Positions 3,279 through 29,651 of a stretch of DNA of 64,000 bases are shown piece by piece. The DNA lies in NCBI RefSeq assembly GCF_003334385.1, contig NZ_QOWN01000016.1, one strand, 5' to 3'. The notes under the pieces were generated by a model. It had not been told where the DNA came from, did no database searches, and saw only the letters and a list, made by a program, of their open reading frames with translations. Each line of letters starts with the position of its first letter. Positions within the stretch are counted from its first letter, which is position 1. A program made the translations under genes and the position numbers. The DNA is from Escherichia coli (GTDB taxonomy: Bacteria; Pseudomonadota; Gammaproteobacteria; Enterobacterales; Enterobacteriaceae).

Positions 3279-5246
3279 ATGGGTATTTTCTCCATTGCTA
3301 ACCAACATATTCGCTTTGCGGTAAAACTGGCGACCGCCATTGTACTGGCGCTGTTTGTTGGCTTTCACTTCCAGCTGGAAACGCCACGCTGGGCGGTACT
3401 GACAGCGGCGATTGTTGCCGCCGGTCCGGCCTTTGCTGCGGGAGGTGAACCGTATTCTGGCGCTATTCGCTATCGTGGCTTTTTGCGCATCATCGGCACA
3501 TTTATTGGCTGTATTGCCGGACTGGTGATCATCATTGCGATGATCCGCGCACCATTATTGATGATTCTGGTGTGCTGTATCTGGGCCGGTTTTTGTACCT
3601 GGATATCCTCGCTGGTACGAATAGAAAACTCGTATGCGTGGGGGCTGGCCGGTTATACCGCGCTGATCATTGTGATCACCATTCAGCCGGAACCATTGCT
3701 TACGCCGCAGTTTGCCGTCGAACGTTGTAGCGAGATCGTTATCGGTATTGTGTGTGCGATTATGGCGGATTTGCTCTTTTCTCCGCGATCGATCAAACAA
3801 GAAGTGGATCGAGAGCTGGAAAGTTTGCTGGTCGCGCAATATCAATTAATGCAACTCTGTATCAAGCATGGCGATGGTGAAGTTGTCGATAAAGCCTGGG
3901 GCGACCTGGTGCGACGCACCACGGCGCTACAAGGCATGCGCAGCAACCTGAATATGGAATCTTCCCGCTGGGCGCGGGCCAATCGACGTTTAAAAGCGAT
4001 CAATACGCTATCGCTGACGCTGATTACCCAATCCTGCGAAACTTATCTTATTCAGAATACGCGCCCGGAATTGATCACTGATACTTTCCGCGAATTTTTT
4101 GACACGCCGGTAGAAACCGCGCAGGACGTCCACAAGCAGCTCAAACGCCTGCGGAGAGTTATCGCCTGGACCGGGGAACGGGAAACGCCTGTCACCATTT
4201 ATAGCTGGGTCGCGGCGGCAACGCGTTATCAGCTTCTCAAGCGCGGCGTTATCAGTAACACAAAAATCAACGCCACCGAAGAAGAGATCCTGCAAGGCGA
4301 ACCGGAAGTAAAAGTAGAGTCAGCCGAACGTCATCATGCAATGGTTAACTTCTGGCGAACCACACTTTCCTGCATTCTGGGCACGCTTTTCTGGCTGTGG
4401 ACGGGCTGGACTTCCGGCAGTGGTGCAATGGTGATGATTGCGGTAGTGACGTCACTGGCAATGCGTTTGCCGAATCCACGCATGGTGGCGATCGACTTTA
4501 TCTACGGGACGCTGGCCGCGCTGCCGTTAGGGCTGCTCTACTTTTTGGTGATTATCCCTAATACCCAACAGAGCATGTTGCTGCTGTGCATTAGCCTGGC
4601 AGTGCTGGGATTCTTCCTCGGTATAGAAGTACAGAAACGGCGACTGGGCTCGATGGGGGCACTGGCCAGCACCATAAATATTATCGTGCTGGATAACCCG
4701 ATGACTTTCCATTTCAGTCAGTTTCTCGACAGCGCATTAGGGCAAATCGTCGGCTGTGTGCTCGCGTTCACCGTTATTTTGCTGGTGCGGGATAAATCGC
4801 GCGACAGGACCGGACGTGTACTGCTTAATCAGTTTGTTTCTGCCGCTGTTTCCGCGATGACTACCAATGTGGCACGTCGTAAAGAGAACCACCTCCCGGC
4901 ACTTTATCAGCAGCTGTTTTTGCTGATGAATAAGTTCCCAGGGGATTTGCCGAAATTTCGCCTGGCGCTGACGATGATTATCGCGCACCAGCGCCTGCGT
5001 GATGCACCGATCCCGGTTAACGAGGATTTATCGGCGTTTCACCGACAAATGCGCCGCACAGCAGACCATGTGATATCTGCCCGTAGCGATGATAAACGTC
5101 GTCGGTACTTTGGCCAGTTGCTGGAAGAACTGGAAATCTACCAGGAAAAGCTACGCATCTGGCAAGCGCCACCGCAGGTGACGGAACCGGTAAATCGGCT
5201 GGCGGGGATGCTCCATAAGTATCAACATGCGTTGACCGATAGTTAA
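3279..5246 (+). CDS. aaeB: p-Hydroxybenzoate efflux pump subunit AaeB
   Basis: 655 aa multi-pass membrane protein 5 bp downstream of aaeA; recognised as AaeB. Confidence 0.9.
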
Positions 5247-5929: not shown

Positions 5930-6293
5930 GATTTTTACCTCGACATAATCTTTTAGCTGGGCCTTTGTTTCGTGACCCATATCACAAAATCAAGTATACA
6001 CTAATTATTGAGCTAATTAATACCGCGCTAACTGTTTCAGTTGATACTAAGTGTTAAAAATGTGAATTTTAATAACAAAAAAGAATTAAAAATACGGTTA
6101 TTTATCGTTAATTCTAGTTTTTTCAATTAGATAATGAATTTTGCATAATGTGCTTTTTTTACCTTATGTATTCATTGTGTGAATGACATGTCGCAGTAAA
6201 ACGCACTATTCGTTAAATTAATCGCAGGGGAAAGCAGGGGGTTGAGAGGGATAAGCAACATTTTCCCCGCCGTCAGAAACGACGGGGCAGAGA

Positions 6294-22472: not shown

Positions 22473-22497
22473 ATTCTGCAGACACTGTCTGCAGAAT
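22473..22497. repeat. Palindromic element, CAGAC-N3-GTCTG family, copy 1 (extragenic, between nanQ and yhcG)
   Basis: ATTCTGCAGAC-act-GTCTGCAGAAT with perfect 11 bp arms; lies in the 59 bp gap between the two convergent genes. Confidence 0.8.
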
Positions 22498-22512: not shown

Positions 22513-23640
22513 TTAACGGCGTCTATAGCCTTCCTCTAGCACCGCCTGTGTTCGAACGAGTTCATCTGCGAGTCGTTTCTCATCAGGTAGTTGCATCTTA
22601 TATTCGCTTGCCAGAACGGTGTTAGGCAAACCTGCCAGAGCATAATGCGCTTCTCCGGCTCCTTTCTCTGCACAGAGAACCAGACCGATGGGCGGATTTT
22701 CATCCGGTAGCGTCCAGTGCTCTTTGGCGTAGTTGAGATACATATTCATCTGTCCGGCATCGCTATAGCTGAATTTGCCCACTTTTAGATCGACGATTAG
22801 CAGGCAGCGTAAACGGCGGTGGAAAAACAGCAGATCGACACGAAACCAGTTGTCATCAATGCGTAACCTTCGCTGCCGACCAACAAAGGCAAAATCATCC
22901 CCAAGTTCCAGCATGAAATCCATCAGGTGGTTGATCAGCGCCTCCTCAAAATCGGATTCTGAATATTCATCTTTCAATTCCAGAAATTCGAGCACAAAGG
23001 GATCGCGTATCGCCTGTTGCGGAAGAATATGCGTCTCGGCAGGAGCGTGTTGTTGCAGCATGGCTGATTTGTCATGTGACAGTAGTGTCCGCTCATAAAA
23101 CTGGGTCGCAATTTGCCGCTCTAGCTGGCGAACAGACCAGCCACAGCGGAGCGTCTCTTTTTCATAAAAGCTGCGGGCGTCAGCGTTTTTAACGGAAAGT
23201 AAACGGACGTAGGTGGACCTGGGCAAGGGGAAAGATTTGGCAGACAGCGTCTGCCAAATCTTTGCCGATGGGAATTCTGCAGACGGTGTCTGCGGAATTC
23301 CCAATGGTGTTAATTCGCCAGACATTGTCTGGCGAATTTCAACATGTTGAAAAAAGAGGTAAAAAAGCCTCATTTGGCGTAAGTTTTTTGCAGAGAACCC
23401 ACGCTTATACCTTAGACATAAATCCTTTGATAGTCGCTTGATTAGCTGCGCACCATACGCAGCCCTGGCCTCGCCACCTTGTTCAAATTCGACAATTCGT
23501 CGGCCAATTTCCTGGTACGTCGCGGTCATTAACGCGTTAACGCTACGTACCGTTTCCGTCCGGGCGCTATCGACCAGATGAATAATACCGTCGTGGATTT
23601 GCTGGTAGCCTGCTGTGGTTCCTTCTGAGAGCGATTCCAT
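22513..23640 (-). CDS. yhcG: YhcG, DUF1016-type protein with a predicted PDDEXK nuclease-like C-terminal region; function unknown
   Basis: 375 aa ORF convergent with nanQ; recognised as YhcG; the centre carries three in-frame 39 bp palindromic repeats (23231-23338). Confidence 0.8.
   Translation of the reverse strand: MESLSEGTTAGYQQIHDGIIHLVDSARTETVRSVNALMTATYQEIGRRIVEFEQGGEARAAYGAQLIKRLSKDLCLRYKRGFSAKNLRQMRLFYLFFQHVEIRQTMSGELTPLGIPQTPSAEFPSAKIWQTLSAKSFPLPRSTYVRLLSVKNADARSFYEKETLRCGWSVRQLERQIATQFYERTLLSHDKSAMLQQHAPAETHILPQQAIRDPFVLEFLELKDEYSESDFEEALINHLMDFMLELGDDFAFVGRQRRLRIDDNWFRVDLLFFHRRLRCLLIVDLKVGKFSYSDAGQMNMYLNYAKEHWTLPDENPPIGLVLCAEKGAGEAHYALAGLPNTVLASEYKMQLPDEKRLADELVRTQAVLEEGYRRR
23231..23338. 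repeat. Three tandem palindromic elements of the same family (copies 2-4), 39 bp period, inside the yhcG reading frame
   Basis: AAAGATTTGGCAGAC-agc-GTCTGCCAAATCTTT (perfect 15 bp arms), GGGAATTCTGCAGAC-ggt-GTCTGCGGAATTCCC (one mismatch), AATTCGCCAGAC-att-GTCTGGCGAATT (perfect 12 bp arms); centres 39 bp apart; the minus strand translates as ...RQTMSGELTPLGIPQTPSAEFPSAKIWQTLSAKSFP... within YhcG. Confidence 0.85.
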
Positions 23641-23824
23641 TATCTGTCCCTTTATATGGAGCTAAGTTGAATAATGGAATGAGCTATACTCTGGGGGGTG
23701 AGCACTGAACAATTAAGAACAGCGTATTACATTTACTTTCCCCAAGATATGCGAAGAGCTTTCCTGAAACATTAACCGATCGTATAAAACGAATGCCTGA
23801 TAGTACTCCTGTCCGGCATTGTTA

Positions 23825-24541
23825 TCACAAGTAGACTACGCTTATCACAGCTTTCCCATCAAGTTCGATTTTTTCTGAACCGCCTAAATCATTCGCGATA
23901 GATGCGCTCACCTGAAGCGGTATAATGGCGTTCGTTACAGGAGTTGGGGTTGTTTCACCTGGTTTTACAAAGGTGTAATAATAGCTTTGATCGACTGCAA
24001 GCGGATAAGCGGTGAGCGTTTGCCATGCTCTTTTTTGCCCTGTTATGACGGCATCTGCACCTGCTATTGATACAGCTAACGTCTGGCTACCATTGCTGGC
24101 ACTAATGTTGTTGCTATCAATTAACACGGCATAACTACCGATATTTTTATTATCTTTTGTTTTCCCTAAGCCGAATAAGCGCGTTGTCTGGCTAATATAA
24201 CCTCCGCCATTTAAGGTATATTTTACACCACTCTGACCCCCACTATCTTTTCCGGTGGTCATACTATCCATTCGTGTATCACGAGCGGTAATCGCAATGC
24301 TGGTAGCGGATTCGCAAGTTATAGTCATATTAATATTACGTGTTCCAATCTGTGTGTAGTGCTGCGTTGAAAGTCTATTGACTGAATGACTACCGAAGTT
24401 AACAACTCCGCCGTTGCTTAGTATTGGAGTACAAGCTGCAGCTTCCAGAGTCACCTTAACGTCAATTGATACTCTATCAGCGGCTTGCGCTGACATGGCA
24501 AAAAAGGCACTTCCGGCAATCAGTAATTTTACATTGTTCAT
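23825..24541 (-). CDS. yhcF: Secreted fimbrial-like protein YhcF (DUF1120 type)
   Basis: 238 aa with signal peptide MNNVKLLIAGSAFFAMSAQA; paralogous pattern to GltF (GxCTP...ITC); last gene of the chaperone-usher operon. Confidence 0.8.
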   Translation of the reverse strand: MNNVKLLIAGSAFFAMSAQAADRVSIDVKVTLEAAACTPILSNGGVVNFGSHSVNRLSTQHYTQIGTRNINMTITCESATSIAITARDTRMDSMTTGKDSGGQSGVKYTLNGGGYISQTTRLFGLGKTKDNKNIGSYAVLIDSNNISASNGSQTLAVSIAGADAVITGQKRAWQTLTAYPLAVDQSYYYTFVKPGETTPTPVTNAIIPLQVSASIANDLGGSEKIELDGKAVISVVYL

Positions 24542-25089
24542 TTTGCCTCCACCAGGACCGTCAGATTGCCTGTAATATCTGTCATGTCGGTTAGTTCCCC
24601 TTCATCCTTAAAAGCTGGAGCCATTGTCAGTGTGAGGCTAACGCTTTTACCGCTATCAATTACCACTTCTTGACCATTTTGCATAAACACCAGCCAATTA
24701 TTGGGGGAAGTACTAATTGATGCTGTTCCTGTGCTGCCCGGATTGTCATTTTTGCCACTGGCTAACGCCAGGTCGAGATTGTTACTACCTGAAAATGCAT
24801 CGCTGGCGATCAGATTTAATGAACCATTCGGGCCAAATCCAAATCCGTTGTTGGAAATATTAGCGGTATTCAACTGAACACGAATATGAGCGTCCTGATC
24901 GCATTGCATTACCAGCGTGATTGTTCTGTCTGCTAATTGTGTTGTTTTACCCCGGTCAACTTGGCGCATGGCAGCACTTCGTTTGCCATAGTCGATATTT
25001 TGTATGCTACTGGAGATATTACACTCTGCCTGAGCGGCCATGGCGAAGTTCAGCAGCAGGCATCCTGTTATTATCCGTTTCATTGGCAC
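24538..25089 (-). CDS. yhcE: Secreted fimbrial-like protein YhcE (DUF1120 type), apparently intact
   Basis: 183 aa with a signal peptide; start overlaps the yhcD stop by 10 nt. Confidence 0.75.
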   Translation of the reverse strand: MPMKRIITGCLLLNFAMAAQAECNISSSIQNIDYGKRSAAMRQVDRGKTTQLADRTITLVMQCDQDAHIRVQLNTANISNNGFGFGPNGSLNLIASDAFSGSNNLDLALASGKNDNPGSTGTASISTSPNNWLVFMQNGQEVVIDSGKSVSLTLTMAPAFKDEGELTDMTDITGNLTVLVEAK

Positions 25090-27461
25090 TCTCCTGTTGC
25101 TGTCTCATAGAACACATCTTTTGGTGCATCTTCTGGGAATGTAAGGTGAATACGGCATGATTGCTGCTCATCTTTTATATCTAGCACCATGTCCGGTTTG
25201 ATGTTATTGAGGAATACAACACCGTCATCCACTGATGTTGTCAGATAGTTGCCTTCACTATCTTCAATCGCAACGCCTCTGGGCAGTTTTTTGCCGTCGG
25301 AAAGTGTGATATTGAGTAATGCACGGCGTTGTGTTATCGCACTGAATCCGACTTTCCCTACTGCACCACGGCCTTGTTTGATCATTTTTGTGCCGTTACC
25401 GATATCGACATTTTTTGGCAAGCTGGCGGTATCGATCTCAACTCCTGATGTTCGCCACGACTGGATTGATGGAATGACGGCATTACCCCGAAAATCTGTC
25501 CATACTGGGCCTGCCTGAGATGTAATTCTGACACCTGCAATATTGTTATCCATTTTTGCGATGGCGAAAGTGTCATTGATAGTCCACGGTGAAAAGGTCA
25601 CTCCCTGATCATGTACGGCAATACCACCTGACATCGTACCGTTGTAAGTACGGCTATCACTGCCGCTTGCTCCTGCGGCAAGGCTGACTTGGGTGTAATG
25701 GAGATTGGAACTGATACTGCCGTTCAAGCTCGTTTCACGTTCGTCGTGATCTCGTTCAGCATTCACATAGTAGGACATCTCATCTGAGACGACTCCCATG
25801 ACACCAGTACCATAGTGGGTTTTATGATCGTCATGGCGAGTATACAGTGTGGCGGTGTTTGATCTGCCAAATGGAATACTGATGTTGACGTAGAACAGAT
25901 CACCATCGTCTTCATTATTTTCTGAAGCACTAAGTTGATGCTGCCAGTTGACGGAAACCGTGGCGTGTTTGAACGCTTTGTTCCAGTTAATATTAAGGTT
26001 GCTTGAGTCATTGTCACCGTCGTAACTATATGTTTTATAGCCACTGATGTTGAAACCACCCAGAATGGAGTTAGACCAGTTTAAACCAAGCGCATAAGTG
26101 CTTTTAGTCGGATCGGTATAATCATCATCAATCGCTTCAGACAGTTCGCGATAATGGCGATCAGATCGAGTGAGGCTGGTTGTTAGCCCAAGTGAAAATG
26201 GGAGATTGTAGTTCGCGTCAAGACGATATTTCTGTCCTTGCAGTGAGTCTTTCGTATCCTGCGATGTACTAATTTGGCTGCTCACTGTTAAATCGGGCAG
26301 GGGAACCAGACTCGACCGGATTGATGCCGCCTGATAATTTTCTGCTACGATAACGCCGCCGTTCATTGCACTCCAGCGTGTCAGATTCCATCCGCTCGAT
26401 GCACTAATTACCCAAGGTGATTCGTCATAGTCATCGTCTACCCGCCCTATCGCGAAGCGATAACCCTGGAAGCTTTCTACATGCTGATTAAACAGGGTGG
26501 AGGGAACAATATAGTTGTGCGAACTACCGTCTGTTTCGACAACGGTGACATTAAGATCACTATTACCATTGCGAACAGGTACATCAGGGATAGTGAATGC
26601 GCCCGCAGGAACCAGAATGGAATGAATTAAAACTCCTTGTTGACGAATCTCGACACGAGCCTGAGAGGTGTTGGCTATACCAGTAACTTGCACACCACTG
26701 CCGCTGGTTTGCAATGCGTTGTCCGGTGCGATTTCGATACCGTAAATACTGGCTCCTTCCAACACGCTATTATTGAGGTTAACTTCACCTGCTCGCATGA
26801 GTGTTTTAAGATCTGTAAAGGTACGTTGAAGGTAGGTTGACGAGTTCTGGTTACTGAATGTGCCATTTGTTTGTGTAAGGAACTGATGGCTGCGTAACAT
26901 CCAGTCATTAATATTAATCCCGCCTTCAAGTGCAGCCTGGGAGTAGTCCGAACTCCCATTAGAAAATTCTGCACGGCTGCTCATCAGAGAGTAGTTTAGC
27001 AGCGCAGCTGTTCCACCAGTTGCTGCGTTTGTGAGATCCAACCCTATGGGAATGATCGCCTGTGGTGAAACGATAATATCTAACGCTTCCTGGTTAGGTA
27101 ATGGTGTGATTGTGGTACCCGGGTAGGACAATATATAGTCGTAACAGCCATTTTTTTCTTCAGAAGGAATTTTTAAACCGGCTTGTTGCAGAAATGCCTG
27201 ATCAAGACAAATGTCGCCATTTTCATCAAAGCGCGTAGCAATGTTGCCTTTTTTTTCGCCATTTACTGATACTATCAGTGAATATTCACCTGGCAAAAAA
27301 CGGGCTGAACGGGAAAAATAATGCGATATATTAGGATCTACACCTAGTGATTTTAATGTTTCCCGATCAAAATCAACAGCGGCAATCTCTATACCATCTG
27401 CATTGGCTGGGGGAGAAAAGGCAAAACCAATGGTGTAGGCCAGTAACGTTTTTTTTAACAT
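25080..27461 (-). CDS. yhcD: Outer-membrane fimbrial usher
   Basis: About 793 aa from MLKKTLLAYTIG (track ORF 799 aa); usher-like beta-barrel sequence with a C-terminal Cys pair. Confidence 0.88.
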   Translation of the reverse strand: MLKKTLLAYTIGFAFSPPANADGIEIAAVDFDRETLKSLGVDPNISHYFSRSARFLPGEYSLIVSVNGEKKGNIATRFDENGDICLDQAFLQQAGLKIPSEEKNGCYDYILSYPGTTITPLPNQEALDIIVSPQAIIPIGLDLTNAATGGTAALLNYSLMSSRAEFSNGSSDYSQAALEGGININDWMLRSHQFLTQTNGTFSNQNSSTYLQRTFTDLKTLMRAGEVNLNNSVLEGASIYGIEIAPDNALQTSGSGVQVTGIANTSQARVEIRQQGVLIHSILVPAGAFTIPDVPVRNGNSDLNVTVVETDGSSHNYIVPSTLFNQHVESFQGYRFAIGRVDDDYDESPWVISASSGWNLTRWSAMNGGVIVAENYQAASIRSSLVPLPDLTVSSQISTSQDTKDSLQGQKYRLDANYNLPFSLGLTTSLTRSDRHYRELSEAIDDDYTDPTKSTYALGLNWSNSILGGFNISGYKTYSYDGDNDSSNLNINWNKAFKHATVSVNWQHQLSASENNEDDGDLFYVNISIPFGRSNTATLYTRHDDHKTHYGTGVMGVVSDEMSYYVNAERDHDERETSLNGSISSNLHYTQVSLAAGASGSDSRTYNGTMSGGIAVHDQGVTFSPWTINDTFAIAKMDNNIAGVRITSQAGPVWTDFRGNAVIPSIQSWRTSGVEIDTASLPKNVDIGNGTKMIKQGRGAVGKVGFSAITQRRALLNITLSDGKKLPRGVAIEDSEGNYLTTSVDDGVVFLNNIKPDMVLDIKDEQQSCRIHLTFPEDAPKDVFYETATGECQ

Positions 27462-27481
27462 CCTTGTCGCTCCAGGCAAAG

Positions 27482-28156
27482 TTATTTTAAGTCAGTGACA
27501 TATTTATTACCGCGATAACCATATCGGCTGGCTGGGTAAAACTCGACTTTTGTATCCGTAGCGTTTGTTAATGCAGTAGTTGTACTGGTGTGTGGTAGAA
27601 AATAGGTCTTATTTATAGCCCCCGTTTTTCCTGAAGGGAGCGTTTTAAATTGTAAGGTCATACGAACGACATAATTACTGGGGTTGCTAATCTCAATTTG
27701 GTCGCCATTTTTACGCCATTCCAGGAATTTCCAGGTCTCTCGCTCTTCCGGCAGGGAAGCCGGGTGGATCAGTACAGGTAGATCCTGACGAATTGAAACA
27801 GTAACTCTGCTGCTCTTGTCATCTTTTGGTGGAATACCTTCGAACGTTACGCGTTTCAGCTCTTCTGATTGCAGAGGAACAGTCGCCTGAAGTAAAAATC
27901 GAACCTGTTGTACTTGACCGGCTTCAACACGAATAACGGGCTGAGTCGGGATTAAACGAATTGATTTATTGCTTTCAGGCAAATCAACAATGGTGGTGTA
28001 AAGCAATGAAGGATGATCATCTGTATTCTTAATATTAATACTAGCTTCACCACGCTTTTCATCAACCAGCAATACTGATGTTTCAGGAACCATCCCTGTG
28101 GCTAAGGTATTCATTGATGTTGTTATAAATACAGTGAATGTAATGTGTCTGAGCAT
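27482..28156 (-). CDS. yhcA: Periplasmic fimbrial chaperone (PapD-like)
   Basis: 224 aa with a signal peptide; 2 bp upstream of the usher gene. Confidence 0.88.
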   Translation of the reverse strand: MLRHITFTVFITTSMNTLATGMVPETSVLLVDEKRGEASINIKNTDDHPSLLYTTIVDLPESNKSIRLIPTQPVIRVEAGQVQQVRFLLQATVPLQSEELKRVTFEGIPPKDDKSSRVTVSIRQDLPVLIHPASLPEERETWKFLEWRKNGDQIEISNPSNYVVRMTLQFKTLPSGKTGAINKTYFLPHTSTTTALTNATDTKVEFYPASRYGYRGNKYVTDLK

Positions 28157-28327
28157 TTAAATTAAAACTCCTGTAATAATGATAAATAACGCAGAAACAT
28201 ATTGTTAATATATGTTATGCACTGTTTGCGATGAGATTGATTAAGACAGACCATGTCATAGGGCATAATCTGTCCGAGTTATAGCTAACTGGTTAATGCG
28301 TAAAAATAAAAACTGTATTACAAGTTC

Positions 28328-29092
28328 TTATAAATACTGAACGCTGATAGTGACGTTACCATCCAGTTTGATCGTTTCATCAGAACCAAGAATAGTATTG
28401 TCATTTACCGCAGCATCAATCAGTAACGGGAAGGTGACCGCTGTAATGGCAACAGGTGTCAGTTCCCCTGTTTTTGCAACAGAATAACCGCGCTCGATTG
28501 CTGAGCAACTTGTCAGCGAGCAGAATGCGCCATTAGATGAGGCTTTCCATGTGGGGGTCGCTGCTGACCAGTGGTCAGTTTGAATCAGGTCGACAGGAAT
28601 TTCACCTGTATCGTCCGCCGCGTGAATCCCACCATTAGACCTGTCAATACCAATGGATGCAGCGCCAATTTTTTGTCCATTAGGCGCAGAACCTAAACCA
28701 AAGGCGTTTTTCGTTCCCTTCATATCTACGAGAGTATCATAAGCTTTTTCAATATAGGATGTGTCGTTTAACGCTACAATGGTCGACTGACGGTTATCCT
28801 TGGAGGTTACAGCAATTAGCGTTGGTGCTGTGCAGGTTATATTTAATGTGCTGTTTTTGCGGCCCAGTTGAACCAGTTTATTACTTTTACCGGTCGGATT
28901 CAGCGCACTGTTATGATGTTTCCCATAGTCAACAATGCCGCCGCCCGTAACAACTGGGGTACATGCACCAGGGGTATACTCGCCGATGATAGTTAATTCT
29001 GTATCAGTTGAATCTGTTGCCATGGCACTGAATGCTGCAACAGAAAGTGCTGCACAAATAGCAGCTGTTGTGAGGTTCTTTTTGAAAAACAT
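28328..29092 (-). CDS. gltF: Secreted fimbrial-like protein GltF (DUF1120 type), probable first subunit of the chaperone-usher operon
   Basis: 254 aa with signal peptide MFFKKNLTTAAICAALSVAAFSAMA; paralogous to YhcF. Confidence 0.85.
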   Translation of the reverse strand: MFFKKNLTTAAICAALSVAAFSAMATDSTDTELTIIGEYTPGACTPVVTGGGIVDYGKHHNSALNPTGKSNKLVQLGRKNSTLNITCTAPTLIAVTSKDNRQSTIVALNDTSYIEKAYDTLVDMKGTKNAFGLGSAPNGQKIGAASIGIDRSNGGIHAADDTGEIPVDLIQTDHWSAATPTWKASSNGAFCSLTSCSAIERGYSVAKTGELTPVAITAVTFPLLIDAAVNDNTILGSDETIKLDGNVTISVQYL

Positions 29093-29611
29093 ATGAACAT
29101 ATCCTTAATAACAAATTTATTTTTTAAAATAAAAAGCTGAAGCAGTATATATATCTGTTTGTGAATGTAAATAAATAACTCGTTCAGAAATAGCCAACTT
29201 GCTGGGATGTATTTATTTAATGAATTTTATAGTTACGATCATGTGAATAATAAGGTGCTGGTGAGGTGGTTTGTGGTGATAATTATTCATTACATGAATG
29301 TTTGCGCTGAAAAATAGGAAAATATATAGATAATTAAGGATAATATATTGGTTTTTTATATTCATATTTTGTATATTAATATCGAGACAATTTACATGGA
29401 ATGAAAAGACTGAATAGCTTGCAGAATCGGTATTGTCAGAGGTGTTAACAAGTAATTGAGACGGATTGTAAATGAGAAATTGCTTGATGTGCTTCACTCA
29501 TCAGACTTGGTGAACAAAGCACAATTTATTGAAAATTATCCCTATTATAGGAAAGGTCAAACGCTCATGCCGCATTTGCCAGAAAACAACGCGCACTTCG
29601 TCAGTAATTTG

Positions 29612-29636
29612 ATTCGCCAGACACAGTCTGGCGAAT
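29612..29636. repeat. Palindromic element, CAGAC-N3-GTCTG family, copy 5 (extragenic, just downstream of gltD)
   Basis: ATTCGCCAGAC-aca-GTCTGGCGAAT with perfect 11 bp arms; arms identical to intragenic copy 4. Confidence 0.8.
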
Positions 29637-29651
29637 TCATTGTTACCTCGC

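Follow-up and report, generated by a model that had tools for sequence, protein, structure and literature searches.

The K-12 array of three palindromes within yhcG is very probably a lineage-specific, in-frame expansion, by units of 13 codons, of one perfect inverted repeat that is ancestral, characterises the DUF1016/YhcG family as a whole and is maintained as nucleic acid. Judged by comparison across this family, one unit is ancestral and fixed in position, and codon choice together with base-pair covariation shows that the palindrome for the most part determines the local peptide, I-x-Q-T-x-S-[A/G]-[Q/K/E]-[S/F/L], and not the reverse. We found no description of the element in the literature on DUF1016, yhcG, PDC-S02 and coding or intragenic palindromes. 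It is an exceptionally clear example of a protein sequence dictated by the structure of its DNA, which bears on the reading of Pfam-type motifs, and a position-fixed structure within the ORF of a whole family provides an experimental handle on the control of DUF1016 nucleases or on their recognition of targets.

In the window, by which we mean the whole 64-kb stretch of DNA that was analysed, the three palindromes follow one another at a spacing of 39 bp in frame with the 375-codon ORF (Table 1). The sequence read and a repeat finder agree on this point with the preliminary description, and the peptides given there for the three units match the ORF translation exactly. As direct repeats the units are only 70–78% alike, their common feature being the palindrome and not the sequence; at this level of divergence Tandem Repeats Finder reported no repeat between 22500 and 23700. 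The element has a GC content of about 45% and ends in ATT...AAT, and the pattern ATTNNNCAGACNNNGTCTGNNNAAT has 5 matches in the window against 0.00 expected. Three consecutive hairpins, envisaged earlier for positions 23231-23338, were indeed obtained when the array was folded, with −67.8 kcal/mol as RNA against −30.8 ± 3.8 for shuffled sequences (z = −9.9) and with z = −11.6 as DNA; none of 200 shuffles matched the folding of the array in either form. Unit A corresponds to the ancestral unit and is the sole unit in O157:H7, and unit B lies within the 78 bp missing from that strain.

Table 1. Positions of yhcG, its palindrome array and the solitary palindromes in the window
Feature	Position	Strand	Sequence or translation	Remarks
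yhcG coding sequence	22513..23640	minus	375 aa	From ORF list, Pfam, PADLOC and RefSeq name; hosts the palindrome array
Palindrome unit A	23312-23324 / 23326-23338		AATTCGCCAGACA-T-TGTCTGGCGAATT	First in gene order; 13-bp perfect arms
Unit A peptide	23312..23338		EIRQTMSGEL	
Palindrome unit B	23270-23284 / 23288-23302		GGGAATTCTGCAGAC-GGT-GTCTGCGGAATTCCC	15-bp arms, one T.G mismatch
Unit B peptide	23270..23302		GIPQTPSAEF	
Palindrome unit C	23231-23245 / 23249-23263		AAAGATTTGGCAGAC-AGC-GTCTGCCAAATCTTT	Last in gene order; 15-bp perfect arms
Unit C peptide	23231..23263		KIWQTLSAKS	
Array translation, three units		minus	EIRQTMSGELTPL / GIPQTPSAEFPSA / KIWQTLSAKSFPL	Frame of 22513-23640
Solitary palindrome	22473-22497		ATTCTGCAGACA-C-TGTCTGCAGAAT	Begins 15 nt past the yhcG stop codon
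Solitary palindrome	29612-29636		ATTCGCCAGAC-ACA-GTCTGGCGAAT	Begins 15 nt past the gltD stop codon

The host gene, annotated as yhcG in RefSeq, belongs to the DUF1016/YhcG family by its two Pfam domains, DUF1016_N (PF17761, residues 19–184, E = 1.3e-36) and PF06250 (residues 208–360, E = 1.6e-56), the latter being the YhcG_C PD-(D/E)XK nuclease domain. Pfam places the array inside DUF1016_N and not in a linker between domains, where it had been thought to lie. The protein matches the candidate defence family PDC-S02 in PADLOC (E = 2.8e-131); NCBIfam contains no model for it and a PDB sequence search with YhcG returned no solved relative. With 9,494 clusters (50% identity) at E <= 1e-10, DUF1016/YhcG is a very large uncharacterised family and a PADLOC candidate anti-phage system, and its genes are found within type I restriction-modification operons, BREX operons, plasmids and prophages. 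The C-terminal domain has been related to archaeal Holliday-junction resolvases and YraN (Kosinski et al. 2005, PMC1189080).

When the codons of 104 motifs were compared with the remainder of the same genes, serine was encoded by TCT in 103 of them (11% elsewhere), isoleucine by ATT in 74 of 77 (32% elsewhere) and glutamine by CAG in all 104 (66% elsewhere), and the third base of the middle codon was G in 103 of the 104 (33% elsewhere). Conservation at third codon positions was 0.91 within the stem as against 0.51 outside. Covariation was assessed in 78 distinct units with 500 shuffles and with slid-partner controls. Here 90.2% of stem cells were paired, compared to 79.2 ± 0.8% after shuffling and 22–44% with slid partners, and double-sided changes numbered 120 versus 53.7 ± 5.2, a count that none of the 500 shuffles reached. 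Such compensatory substitutions are those of a base-paired nucleic-acid element, i.e. a hairpin or cruciform. Three stem pairs carry 23–39 double changes each, and pair 9-23 is split almost evenly between C-G (37 units) and G-C (36). Residue 8 of the peptide may be Q, K or E; their charges differ but all three have NAA codons, and the first base of this codon pairs with the first base of the residue 2 codon; the amino acids at the two positions covary (V/A with Q, L/S/C/W with K, R/P with E) because of this base pairing. A conserved peptide over non-palindromic DNA, which the preliminary description had named as the refuting case, is the opposite of the observation. The second alternative offered there, a cis-acting site constrained to stay in frame, gains support from the cross-phylum palindrome, the compensatory changes and the fixed codons. 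Protein constraint on Q-T-x-S could contribute part of the sequence conservation within the subfamily.

In about 70 of the 80 YhcG-type genes compared, which represent eight or more phyla, one palindrome unit occupies the same codon position, directly ahead of the stretch that encodes the conserved 'LSWSH/PLPWS.Y' motif. The taxa are Gamma- and Betaproteobacteria, Acidobacteria, Verrucomicrobia, Bacteroidota, Actinobacteria, Cyanobacteria, Planctomycetes and Chloroflexota, with perfect arms of 11–15 bp, and phages too carry the palindrome in their DUF1016/YhcG nuclease genes. The consensus of these YhcG-type genes is ATTnnnCAGAC-nnn-GTCTGnnnAAT, in which the inner triplets covary and, within the YhcG subfamily, the CAGAC/GTCTG core and the outer ATT/AAT are invariant. 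Spacers mostly measure 1 or 3 nt (range 0–7) and in many family members the symmetry runs on across the centre, leaving a loop of 0 or 1 nt; complementarity of the 3-nt centre showed no association in the YhcG subfamily (Fisher p = 0.46). A variant core, GATTCTGGAATC-AGC-GATTCCAGAATC, encoding ILESAIPES, is still palindromic, and distant subfamilies of 27–40% identity carry unrelated palindromes at the same site. Palindrome scores of at least 8 were obtained for 52 of 67 site windows (78%) compared to 22 of 1027 control windows (2%) from the same ORFs. The palindrome is not indispensable, since about a fifth of the distant family members have no convincing one; quasi-palindromes with 1–2 mismatches are common among distant members, and a few AT-rich relatives (L124) retain LQTLSAQF over weaker palindromes. 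A covariance-model search of 561 kb recovered the element only in or next to DUF1016 genes.

The number of units varies within E. coli, whose yhcG alleles hold 1, 2 or 3 of them with the remaining protein conserved; the copy-number variation looked for after the preliminary description thus exists. The 78-bp difference between K-12 and O157:H7 is bounded by CC(A/C)TTG, and the extra K-12 units look like a tandem duplication or a deletion between short repeats. Copy number probably changes by gain or loss between such repeats, which the self-complementary AATT at the stem bases supplies. yhcG is used as an LSPA-6 locus for O157:H7 typing and the 78-bp O157 difference falls within it. Palindrome copy number accounts for the length differences of E. 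coli yhcG alleles. The palindromes are also recurrent breakpoints of rearrangements, the evidence for breakpoint enrichment being anecdotal: the BL21-type replacement, present in 726 genomes, has its junction at the outer edge of unit C, IS1 is inserted within unit C in one strain, and in L217 the duplication of a cassette, a MazF-like toxin-antitoxin pair, begins at the palindrome edge. In this sense the array marks a local rearrangement hotspot in E. coli genomes. The 101-aa ORF of BL21 matched nothing in NCBIfam, Pfam, PHROGs or PADLOC, and its RefSeq name 'transposase' finds no support there.

Two copies outside the ORF had been overlooked (Table 1). The one next to yhcG sits between this gene and the convergent nanQ/yhcH and was found in all Escherichia loci examined; its context, if translated, is a miniature copy of the internal yhcG motif, and in P0021 it is actually translated owing to a lost stop codon. 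The copy next to gltD has arms identical to those of unit A and is followed by a weak, stop-interrupted similarity to YhcG, with which it possibly forms a decayed gene relic. When both were examined as relics of a whole gene, protein similarity was weak (E = 0.002–0.1 in a tiny database) and no DNA homology was found beyond the 27-29-nt palindrome; we tentatively consider the solitary copies to be gene relics. E. coli and some phage contigs thus have copies away from intact DUF1016 genes. Non-coding copies also lie 15–40 nt ahead of start codons: the YhcG-type palindrome of L086 is non-coding and located just upstream of the Shine–Dalgarno sequence, and in L093 identical 13-bp arms are found ahead of the gene and again within it, 366 bp further down. 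A terminator and promoter scan called no signal at the palindromes, and none of them, not even the copy that begins 15 nt past the stop codon, was called terminator-like.

We suggest that the palindrome may act as DNA, by forming a hairpin or cruciform that works in cis with the gene. YhcG itself would be the probable reader of the site, which would serve as a target or a regulatory site: its C-terminal PD-(D/E)XK domain is similar to Holliday-junction resolvases, and a cruciform has the form of a four-way junction. The arms would be kept perfect by templated correction within one strand, of the quasi-palindrome kind. DNA is preferred to RNA because there is no excess of G.U among the stem mismatches on either strand, because swaps of C-G to G-C cannot go via wobble pairs, because many members are palindromic through the centre and because copies persist in non-coding DNA beside the gene. 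The 858 stem cells comprise 789 Watson–Crick pairs and few mismatches, i.e. 7 G.T (sense), 15 A.C (equivalent to antisense G.T) and 47 others; with so few of them, the missing wobble bias is negative evidence that leans towards DNA. As counterpoints, arms of 11–15 bp are short for spontaneous cruciform extrusion, and solitary copies stand at UTR-like places where an RNA role fits equally well. The DNA-level self-target mechanism, which is read from sequence, is put forward tentatively, as a possibility that falls short of being probable; the explanation taken as a whole, with its observed and its conjectured parts blended, seems to us evenly poised between right and wrong. It is rather unlikely that the DUF1016 nuclease itself recognises or cleaves the palindrome in cis, as a cruciform or hairpin target built into its own gene, and that the site drives the exchange of cassettes in defence islands. 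Cutting or binding there would then regulate the nuclease and turn the gene into a module active in recombination; this would explain why N-terminal stubs, collapsed relics, foreign cassettes (the MazF-like pair of L217, the BL21 replacement) and duplications all join exactly at the palindrome.

A somewhat unlikely reading of the same data is that hairpins in the yhcG transcript, formed by the copies in the ORF and the UTR, control the translation or decay of the mRNA of a potentially toxic nuclease, or are bound by the protein itself, as autoregulation or as an embedded antitoxin-like RNA comparable to the type III ToxI repeats. A structure conserved at the superfamily level where sequence is not, and an RNA fold as strong as that of the array (z = −9.9), would suit this role, but the complementarity through the centre of many palindromes is useless to a hairpin, and G.U accounts for less than 1% of stem cells and is no commoner than other mismatches on either strand. 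The positions of solitary copies, 15 nt after stops or 15–40 nt before starts, are transcript-like and the tandem period of 36–39 nt recalls the 36-nt repeats of ToxI; on the other hand, there is no Rfam match or terminator-like tail, and the upstream copy of L093 may, on a weak reading, precede the likely promoter.

It is improbable that the palindrome serves as an operator in duplex DNA, i.e. as the dyad site of a dimeric protein, possibly the DUF1016 N-terminal domain itself; the site would act as an intragenic roadblock or, like lac O2 inside lacZ, as a looping partner of copies near the promoter. The invariance of the CAGAC/GTCTG core and the outer ATT/AAT within the subfamily is what an operator would show, yet tandem units differ in their inner triplets and stay complementary all the same, and half-site recognition would need templated correction too. 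The identical arms of L093, upstream and 366 bp downstream in the gene, the non-coding palindrome just upstream of the Shine–Dalgarno sequence in L086 and a symmetry that often runs through the centre all speak for such a site, but in most family members the internal copy stands alone, and the DNA-binding role of the N domain is putative, with no solved relative in the PDB.

The palindrome might also have no function, having arisen once in a tolerant loop and perpetuating itself by mutational bias, with template switching copying arm changes and slippage making or removing tandem copies; this we regard as quite improbable. Double transversions between C-G and G-C (37 versus 36) are the product expected of templated correction. 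Distant members often have quasi-palindromes with 1–2 mismatches, some 20% of the distant genes have lost the element or show it weakly, and its copy number drifts within E. coli. Mutational bias of this kind is difficult to reconcile, however, with the retention of one codon position down to 27% protein identity in more than eight phyla, with the 2% of control windows from the same ORFs compared to 78% at the site, with perfect copies kept in adjoining non-coding DNA, and with persistence despite palindromes being deletion-prone and an in-frame deletion being tolerated (O157 allele).

The leading analogy of the preliminary description, the insertion of a Rickettsia-type palindromic element into the frame of yhcG, is not supported, and a mobile element of the RPE, REP or MITE type is highly improbable here. 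Units are indeed present or absent among E. coli alleles, but the ancestral unit is position-fixed in orthologues and just the extra units vary; E. coli and some phage contigs do have copies away from intact DUF1016 genes, but the extragenic ones look like gene relics. The copies are not dispersed either: the 5 in the 64-kb window are all at the yhcG locus, E. coli genomes have them in at most 2 places, and in 561 kb they are found only in or beside DUF1016 genes; moreover, the unit measures 27–39 bp against about 100–150 bp for RPEs. That a peptide repeat is selected at the protein level over coincidentally palindromic DNA is next to impossible, even with Q-T-x-S invariant in the YhcG subfamily and LQTLSAQF retained over weaker palindromes in a few AT-rich relatives (L124): it is ruled out by essentially fixed codons (TCT 99% versus 11%) and covariation, with the differently charged residues Q/K/E at position 8 sharing NAA codons that pair with the residue 2 codon, and the peptide is wholly different between subfamilies in which the palindrome stays.

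Among known elements, RPEs are about 100–150 bp long. They are dispersed in many unrelated genes, whereas the yhcG element is ancestral, belongs to one gene family at one homologous position and covers 25–33 bp. The many dispersed copies of an RPE or MITE were not seen in the 64-kb window, in E. coli genomes or in 561 kb, nor was an empty site without the ancestral copy found among the E. coli alleles compared, and most orthologues hold at least one unit. RPEs and the coding palindromes of Nematomorpha mitochondria (PMC6649704) do resemble it in that palindromic DNA is translated in frame and the peptide is tolerated. REP/BIME, integron attC sites and IS200/IS605 ends are likewise small hairpin palindromes at rearrangement or insertion junctions; the yhcG element lies inside an ORF and is without a GTAG/CGTC head, high copy number, RAYT, Y1 transposase, integron integrase or extrahelical bases. 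In particular, it differs from REP/BIME in being intragenic and low-copy with about 45% GC, and no RAYT gene was seen in the flanks. Its spacers of mostly 1 or 3 nt are not those of tyrosine or serine recombinase core sites (6–8 bp and 2 bp, respectively); an integrase gene is adjacent in some plasmid members only and none is present at the E. coli locus. No palindrome was called terminator-like, as an intrinsic (Rho-independent) terminator would be, and with Rfam 15 at a permissive E-value only chance matches to miRNA hairpins were obtained, the best with 23.6 bits against a gathering score of 80.

ToxI repeats, which are 36 nt long, offer a different comparison. The RNA of type III toxin-antitoxin systems also consists of tandem units of ~36–39 nt associated with a defence-type nuclease gene, and an RNA binding its own protein is conceivable for yhcG. 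ToxI repeats, however, are non-coding, lie upstream of the toxin gene and have an endoribonuclease of the ToxN fold as partner; the yhcG units are part of a reading frame, form perfect DNA palindromes free of G.U pairs and belong to a PD-(D/E)XK protein. Repeats translated inside the nuclease gene of such a protein do not make a type III system. Operators within genes are well known: lac O2 lies inside lacZ and gal OI in galE, and there are intragenic cre sites. In these cases too a dyad-symmetric cis site is embedded in coding sequence, sometimes accompanied by a second copy near the promoter, as in L093. What operators conserve is the bases that are contacted and not complementarity, whereas in yhcG the non-conserved positions covary and tandem units differ in sequence.

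Quasi-palindromes that are hotspots of template switching in E. coli have reportedly been described by the Ripley model and with thyA and lacZ reporters by the Lovett laboratory, and the rates of quasi-palindrome correction in E. coli are high (Ripley; Lovett laboratory). There, short inverted repeats are made complementary by templated mutation, which in yhcG would explain both the double-sided changes and the perfect arms, and the swaps of C-G to G-C and the frequent quasi-palindromes with one mismatch are consistent with such a hotspot. These hotspots are incidental sequences, whereas the yhcG palindrome has been conserved in many phyla at one position of a gene family.

The region lies in the Escherichia coli nan-yhcG-glt locus. 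The yhcG gene, named from RefSeq genomes with a 100% identity match, encodes the Pfam domains DUF1016_N (residues 19-184) and YhcG_C PD-(D/E)XK (208-360), and its product also matches PDC-S02, a PADLOC candidate defence family. The three in-frame palindromes translated as 13-residue units in the preliminary description were recovered from the sequence, the ORF and an inverted-repeat search, with a spacing of exactly 39 bp. They are predicted to fold into three consecutive hairpins (z = -9.9 as RNA and -11.6 as DNA, against shuffled sequence). Their similarity as direct repeats is only 70-78%, and they escape Tandem Repeats Finder; what they have in common is dyad symmetry, a difference between units being matched by a compensating change in the other arm. 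On the plus strand, a 59-aa ORF (23262-23441) reads the mirror peptide MPMGILQTVSAEFPMVLIRQTLSGEF; it is a by-product of the palindromes and should not be taken as evidence for an antisense gene. The RegulonDB ncRNA G0-10703, which is activated in stationary phase, is reported to be divergent from yhcG and to overlap its 5' region by 128 bp (window about 23640-23770) (PMC7967276). It does not reach the palindromes.

Positions of yhcG, of the palindromes within it and of the solitary palindromes
Feature	Position	Strand	Description
yhcG	22513-23640	minus	375 aa
Palindrome unit A	23312-23338		within yhcG; perfect 13-bp arms
Palindrome unit B	23270-23302		within yhcG; 15-bp arms, one mismatch
Palindrome unit C	23231-23263		within yhcG; perfect 15-bp arms
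Solitary palindrome	22473-22497		15 nt past the yhcG stop codon (minus strand)
Solitary palindrome	29612-29636		15 nt past the gltD stop codon (minus strand); arms identical to unit A

A scan with one genome per species gave 80 YhcG-type loci (53-98% identity) from Enterobacteriaceae, Burkholderiaceae, Coxiellaceae, Acidobacteria, Verrucomicrobia, Planctomycetes, Bacteroidota, Actinobacteria, Cyanobacteria and Chloroflexota. In almost all of them the stretch between the conserved motifs 'QMRxFY' and 'PLPWS.YVRLL' contains the peptide x-I-x-Q-T-x-S-[A/G]-x-[S/F/L], in one to three copies. The underlying DNA reads ATTnnnCAGAC-nnn-GTCTGnnnAAT, and its perfect arms measure 11-15 bp. The inner triplet varies among lineages and among tandem units while remaining complementary (GTG/CAC, TTG/CAA, CGG/CCG, TCG/CGA, GCG/CGC, CCG/CGG, TGC/GCA, GTC/GAC and CGC/GCG were found). 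The palindrome spans phyla and is ancestral.

Codon choice within 104 motifs, from genes of 40 to 69% G+C, was compared with that elsewhere in the same genes. Serine is encoded by TCT in 103/104 motifs (11% elsewhere), isoleucine by ATT in 74/77 (32%) and glutamine by CAG in all 104 (66%), while the middle codon ends in G in 103/104 (33%). Conservation of third-codon positions is 0.91 within the stem and 0.51 in the flanks. Across 78 distinct units the 12-pair helix is 90.2% paired, compared with 79.2 +/- 0.8 in shuffles and 22-44% with slid partners, and double-sided changes number 120, where shuffles give 53.7 +/- 5.2 and 0/500 of them reach the observed figure. Residue 8 is Q, K or E, in each case with an NAA codon, in which N is the pairing partner of the base that opens the residue 2 codon; it is this pairing that produces the combinations V/A-Q, L/S/C/W-K and R/P-E, a pattern for which protein-level selection cannot account.

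Members with a variant peptide keep a palindrome, as in GATTCTGGAATC-AGC-GATTCCAGAATC, which encodes ILESAIPES, in GGATTCTCCAATC-AGC-GATTGGAGAATCC, in TGCCCGACG-C-CGTCGGGCA (two copies) and in ATTCGGCAGATG-C-CATCTGCCGAAT. At the homologous site, directly before the 'LSWSH/LPWGH' codons, plasmid and phage members with only 27-40% identity to YhcG have unrelated palindromes, such as CAATTGTCGTGAC-GCT-GTCACGACAATTG, AATTCTCGTATCA-C-TGATACGAGAATT, AATTGGTCAACA-AGC-TGTTGACCAATT from Wolbachia phage WO and CAGATTGTGAACGCA|TGCGTTCACAATCTG. Most members lacking a perfect palindrome have 11-15-bp arms with one or two mismatches. When windows were scored as matches minus twice the mismatches, 52/67 distinct site windows reached at least 8, compared with 22/1,027 control windows from the same ORFs (medians 9 and 4). 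What is conserved at the site is structure rather than sequence. The DUF1016 family comprises 21,241 50%-identity clusters at E <= 1e-3. On plasmids (L088, L090, L092, L097) its genes lie between BREX pglX and pglZ, and also between DNA methyltransferase and restriction endonuclease subunit S genes; on two megaplasmids the gene overlaps the stop codon of a site-specific integrase gene.

The two solitary palindromes were absent from the preliminary description. A pattern scan of the 64-kb window found no copies beyond these and the internal array (chance expectation 0.00). Both are preceded by GA, creating GAATTC. The translated context of the copy behind yhcG is a miniature of the internal motif, and in a rare 391-aa allele (P0021; L085:4100-4176, E. 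coli Logan assembly) loss of the stop codon lets translation run on through this palindrome, adding 21 residues. A roughly 6-kb block (gltF and the yhcA/yhcD fimbrial genes; window 23641-29650) separates gltD and yhcG in K-12-type genomes, and the copy behind gltD belongs to the K-12-specific side. O157:H7 and BL21 are without the block, with a gltD-yhcG distance of 183 bp; in O157 another hairpin, rich in GC, takes the place of that copy. A Gemmataceae DUF1016 gene also has a palindrome about 12-15 nt past its stop codon (L060:3656-3686). A covariance model from 78 units, run over 561 kb of fetched loci, matched only the internal site or positions directly beside DUF1016 genes. The latter lie 3' of the gene in Escherichia and a Gemmataceae MAG, and 5' of it in Fusobacterium and in Pseudarthrobacter, where the arms are identical to those of its own internal copy. 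In Tenacibaculum a palindrome of different sequence stands just upstream of the gene. In IMG/VR the exact pattern occurs at 38 loci, 23 within DUF1016 genes and 15 outside; nine of the latter, mostly non-coding, are real copies since the inner triplets are complementary in every copy. At one of these loci, on a prophage contig (L217), a 170-190-bp direct repeat (4700-4880 and 6020-6200) starts at the edge of the first of two YhcG-type palindromes and contains a collapsed DUF1016 remnant. The repeats flank a 1.3-kb cassette of a MazF-like toxin (phrog_1936) and a phrog_1281 partner protein, adjoined by an integrase gene. The same palindrome pair occurs in L215, 1.3 kb upstream of an intact DUF1016 gene. 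The solitary E. coli copies may tentatively be seen as relics of DUF1016 genes, the similarity being weak.

Within E. coli, the 308-bp array region is present in 3,973/5,426 complete genomes, at one place each. The expected copy-number variation was found, protein clusters having 1, 2 or 3 units in two allele families, of 349, 362 and 375 aa and of 358, 370 and 382 aa, the second in 479 genomes. O157:H7 yhcG lacks exactly 78 bp, or two units, with CC(A/C)TTG at the boundaries; its 349-aa product has EIRQTVSGELTPLPWSTY as its only unit. The lineage II allele of yhcG in LSPA-6 typing is probably 78 bp longer. In this O157:H7 scheme yhcG is one of six loci, with an amplicon of 394 bases in lineage I and a 392-base variant also given (PMC3514354, PMC8733641). 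In 726 genomes including BL21(DE3), an unrelated 471 bp (L002:2530-3000) takes the place of all DNA between the nanQ stop codon and the last palindrome's outer edge (window 23235), so that yhcG loses its C-terminal two thirds and the 3' palindrome is missing. The new DNA carries a 101-aa ORF which RefSeq names 'transposase' and which matches no recognisable family in Pfam, NCBIfam, PHROG or PADLOC. In one O25:H16 strain, F5505-C1, IS1B lies within the last palindrome (GTCTGCCA|GGTAATGAC; L003:3120-3130), and yhcG has lost its N-terminal part together with the DNA as far as gltD. Given the BL21 replacement, the IS1 insertion, the 78-bp indel and the L217 direct repeat, the palindromes recur as rearrangement junctions; breakpoint enrichment is anecdotal.

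We conclude that the array arose by local tandem expansion of an inverted repeat that is found throughout the family and is maintained as nucleic acid; a dispersed mobile element and a protein-level repeat are both rejected. The strongest rival for its mode of action is a hairpin in the mRNA that would serve in regulation or bind a protein, and the UTR-like placement of the solitary copies speaks for it. Stem mismatches comprise 7 G.T, 15 A.C and 47 others against 789 Watson-Crick pairs, and the lack of G.U enrichment on either strand leans towards a role in DNA. So does the commonest covariation, C-G to G-C, a double transversion without wobble intermediate that is typical of one arm being copied from the other by template. 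Many members are moreover palindromic through the centre (loop of 0 or 1 nt), non-coding DNA retains copies, and breakpoints are DNA events. For these reasons we favour an element that would act at the DNA level. A duplex operator for a dimeric binder is a further rival, and a functionless, self-perpetuating palindrome another.

A cruciform is a four-way junction, and the sole factor always accompanying the element is the host gene's own product. Its nuclease domain is related to archaeal Holliday-junction resolvases and YraN by profile and fold-recognition analysis (PMC1189080). On these grounds, our working model is a cis site that would form a hairpin or cruciform, with the DUF1016 protein as its reader. 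Quasi-palindrome correction would preserve the perfect palindrome, and slippage between self-complementary AATT stem bases could expand or contract the array.

Rfam has no matching family, and no description of the element was found in the literature on DUF1016, yhcG, PDC-S02 or coding palindromes. Identity with REP/BIME or with a type III toxin-antitoxin array was rejected, as was a terminator, none being called at the palindromes by a terminator scan, and a recombinase core site, for which the spacers are wrong. The analogy drawn earlier with Rickettsia palindromic elements does not hold beyond in-frame translation, the sole likeness, since the element is not dispersed and shows no insertion polymorphism at a site that is otherwise empty. 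Conceptually it stands closest to cis-acting structures embedded in ORFs and to quasi-palindrome hotspots; what appears to be new is a position-fixed, compensatorily evolving perfect palindrome typical of a whole nuclease gene family across phyla.
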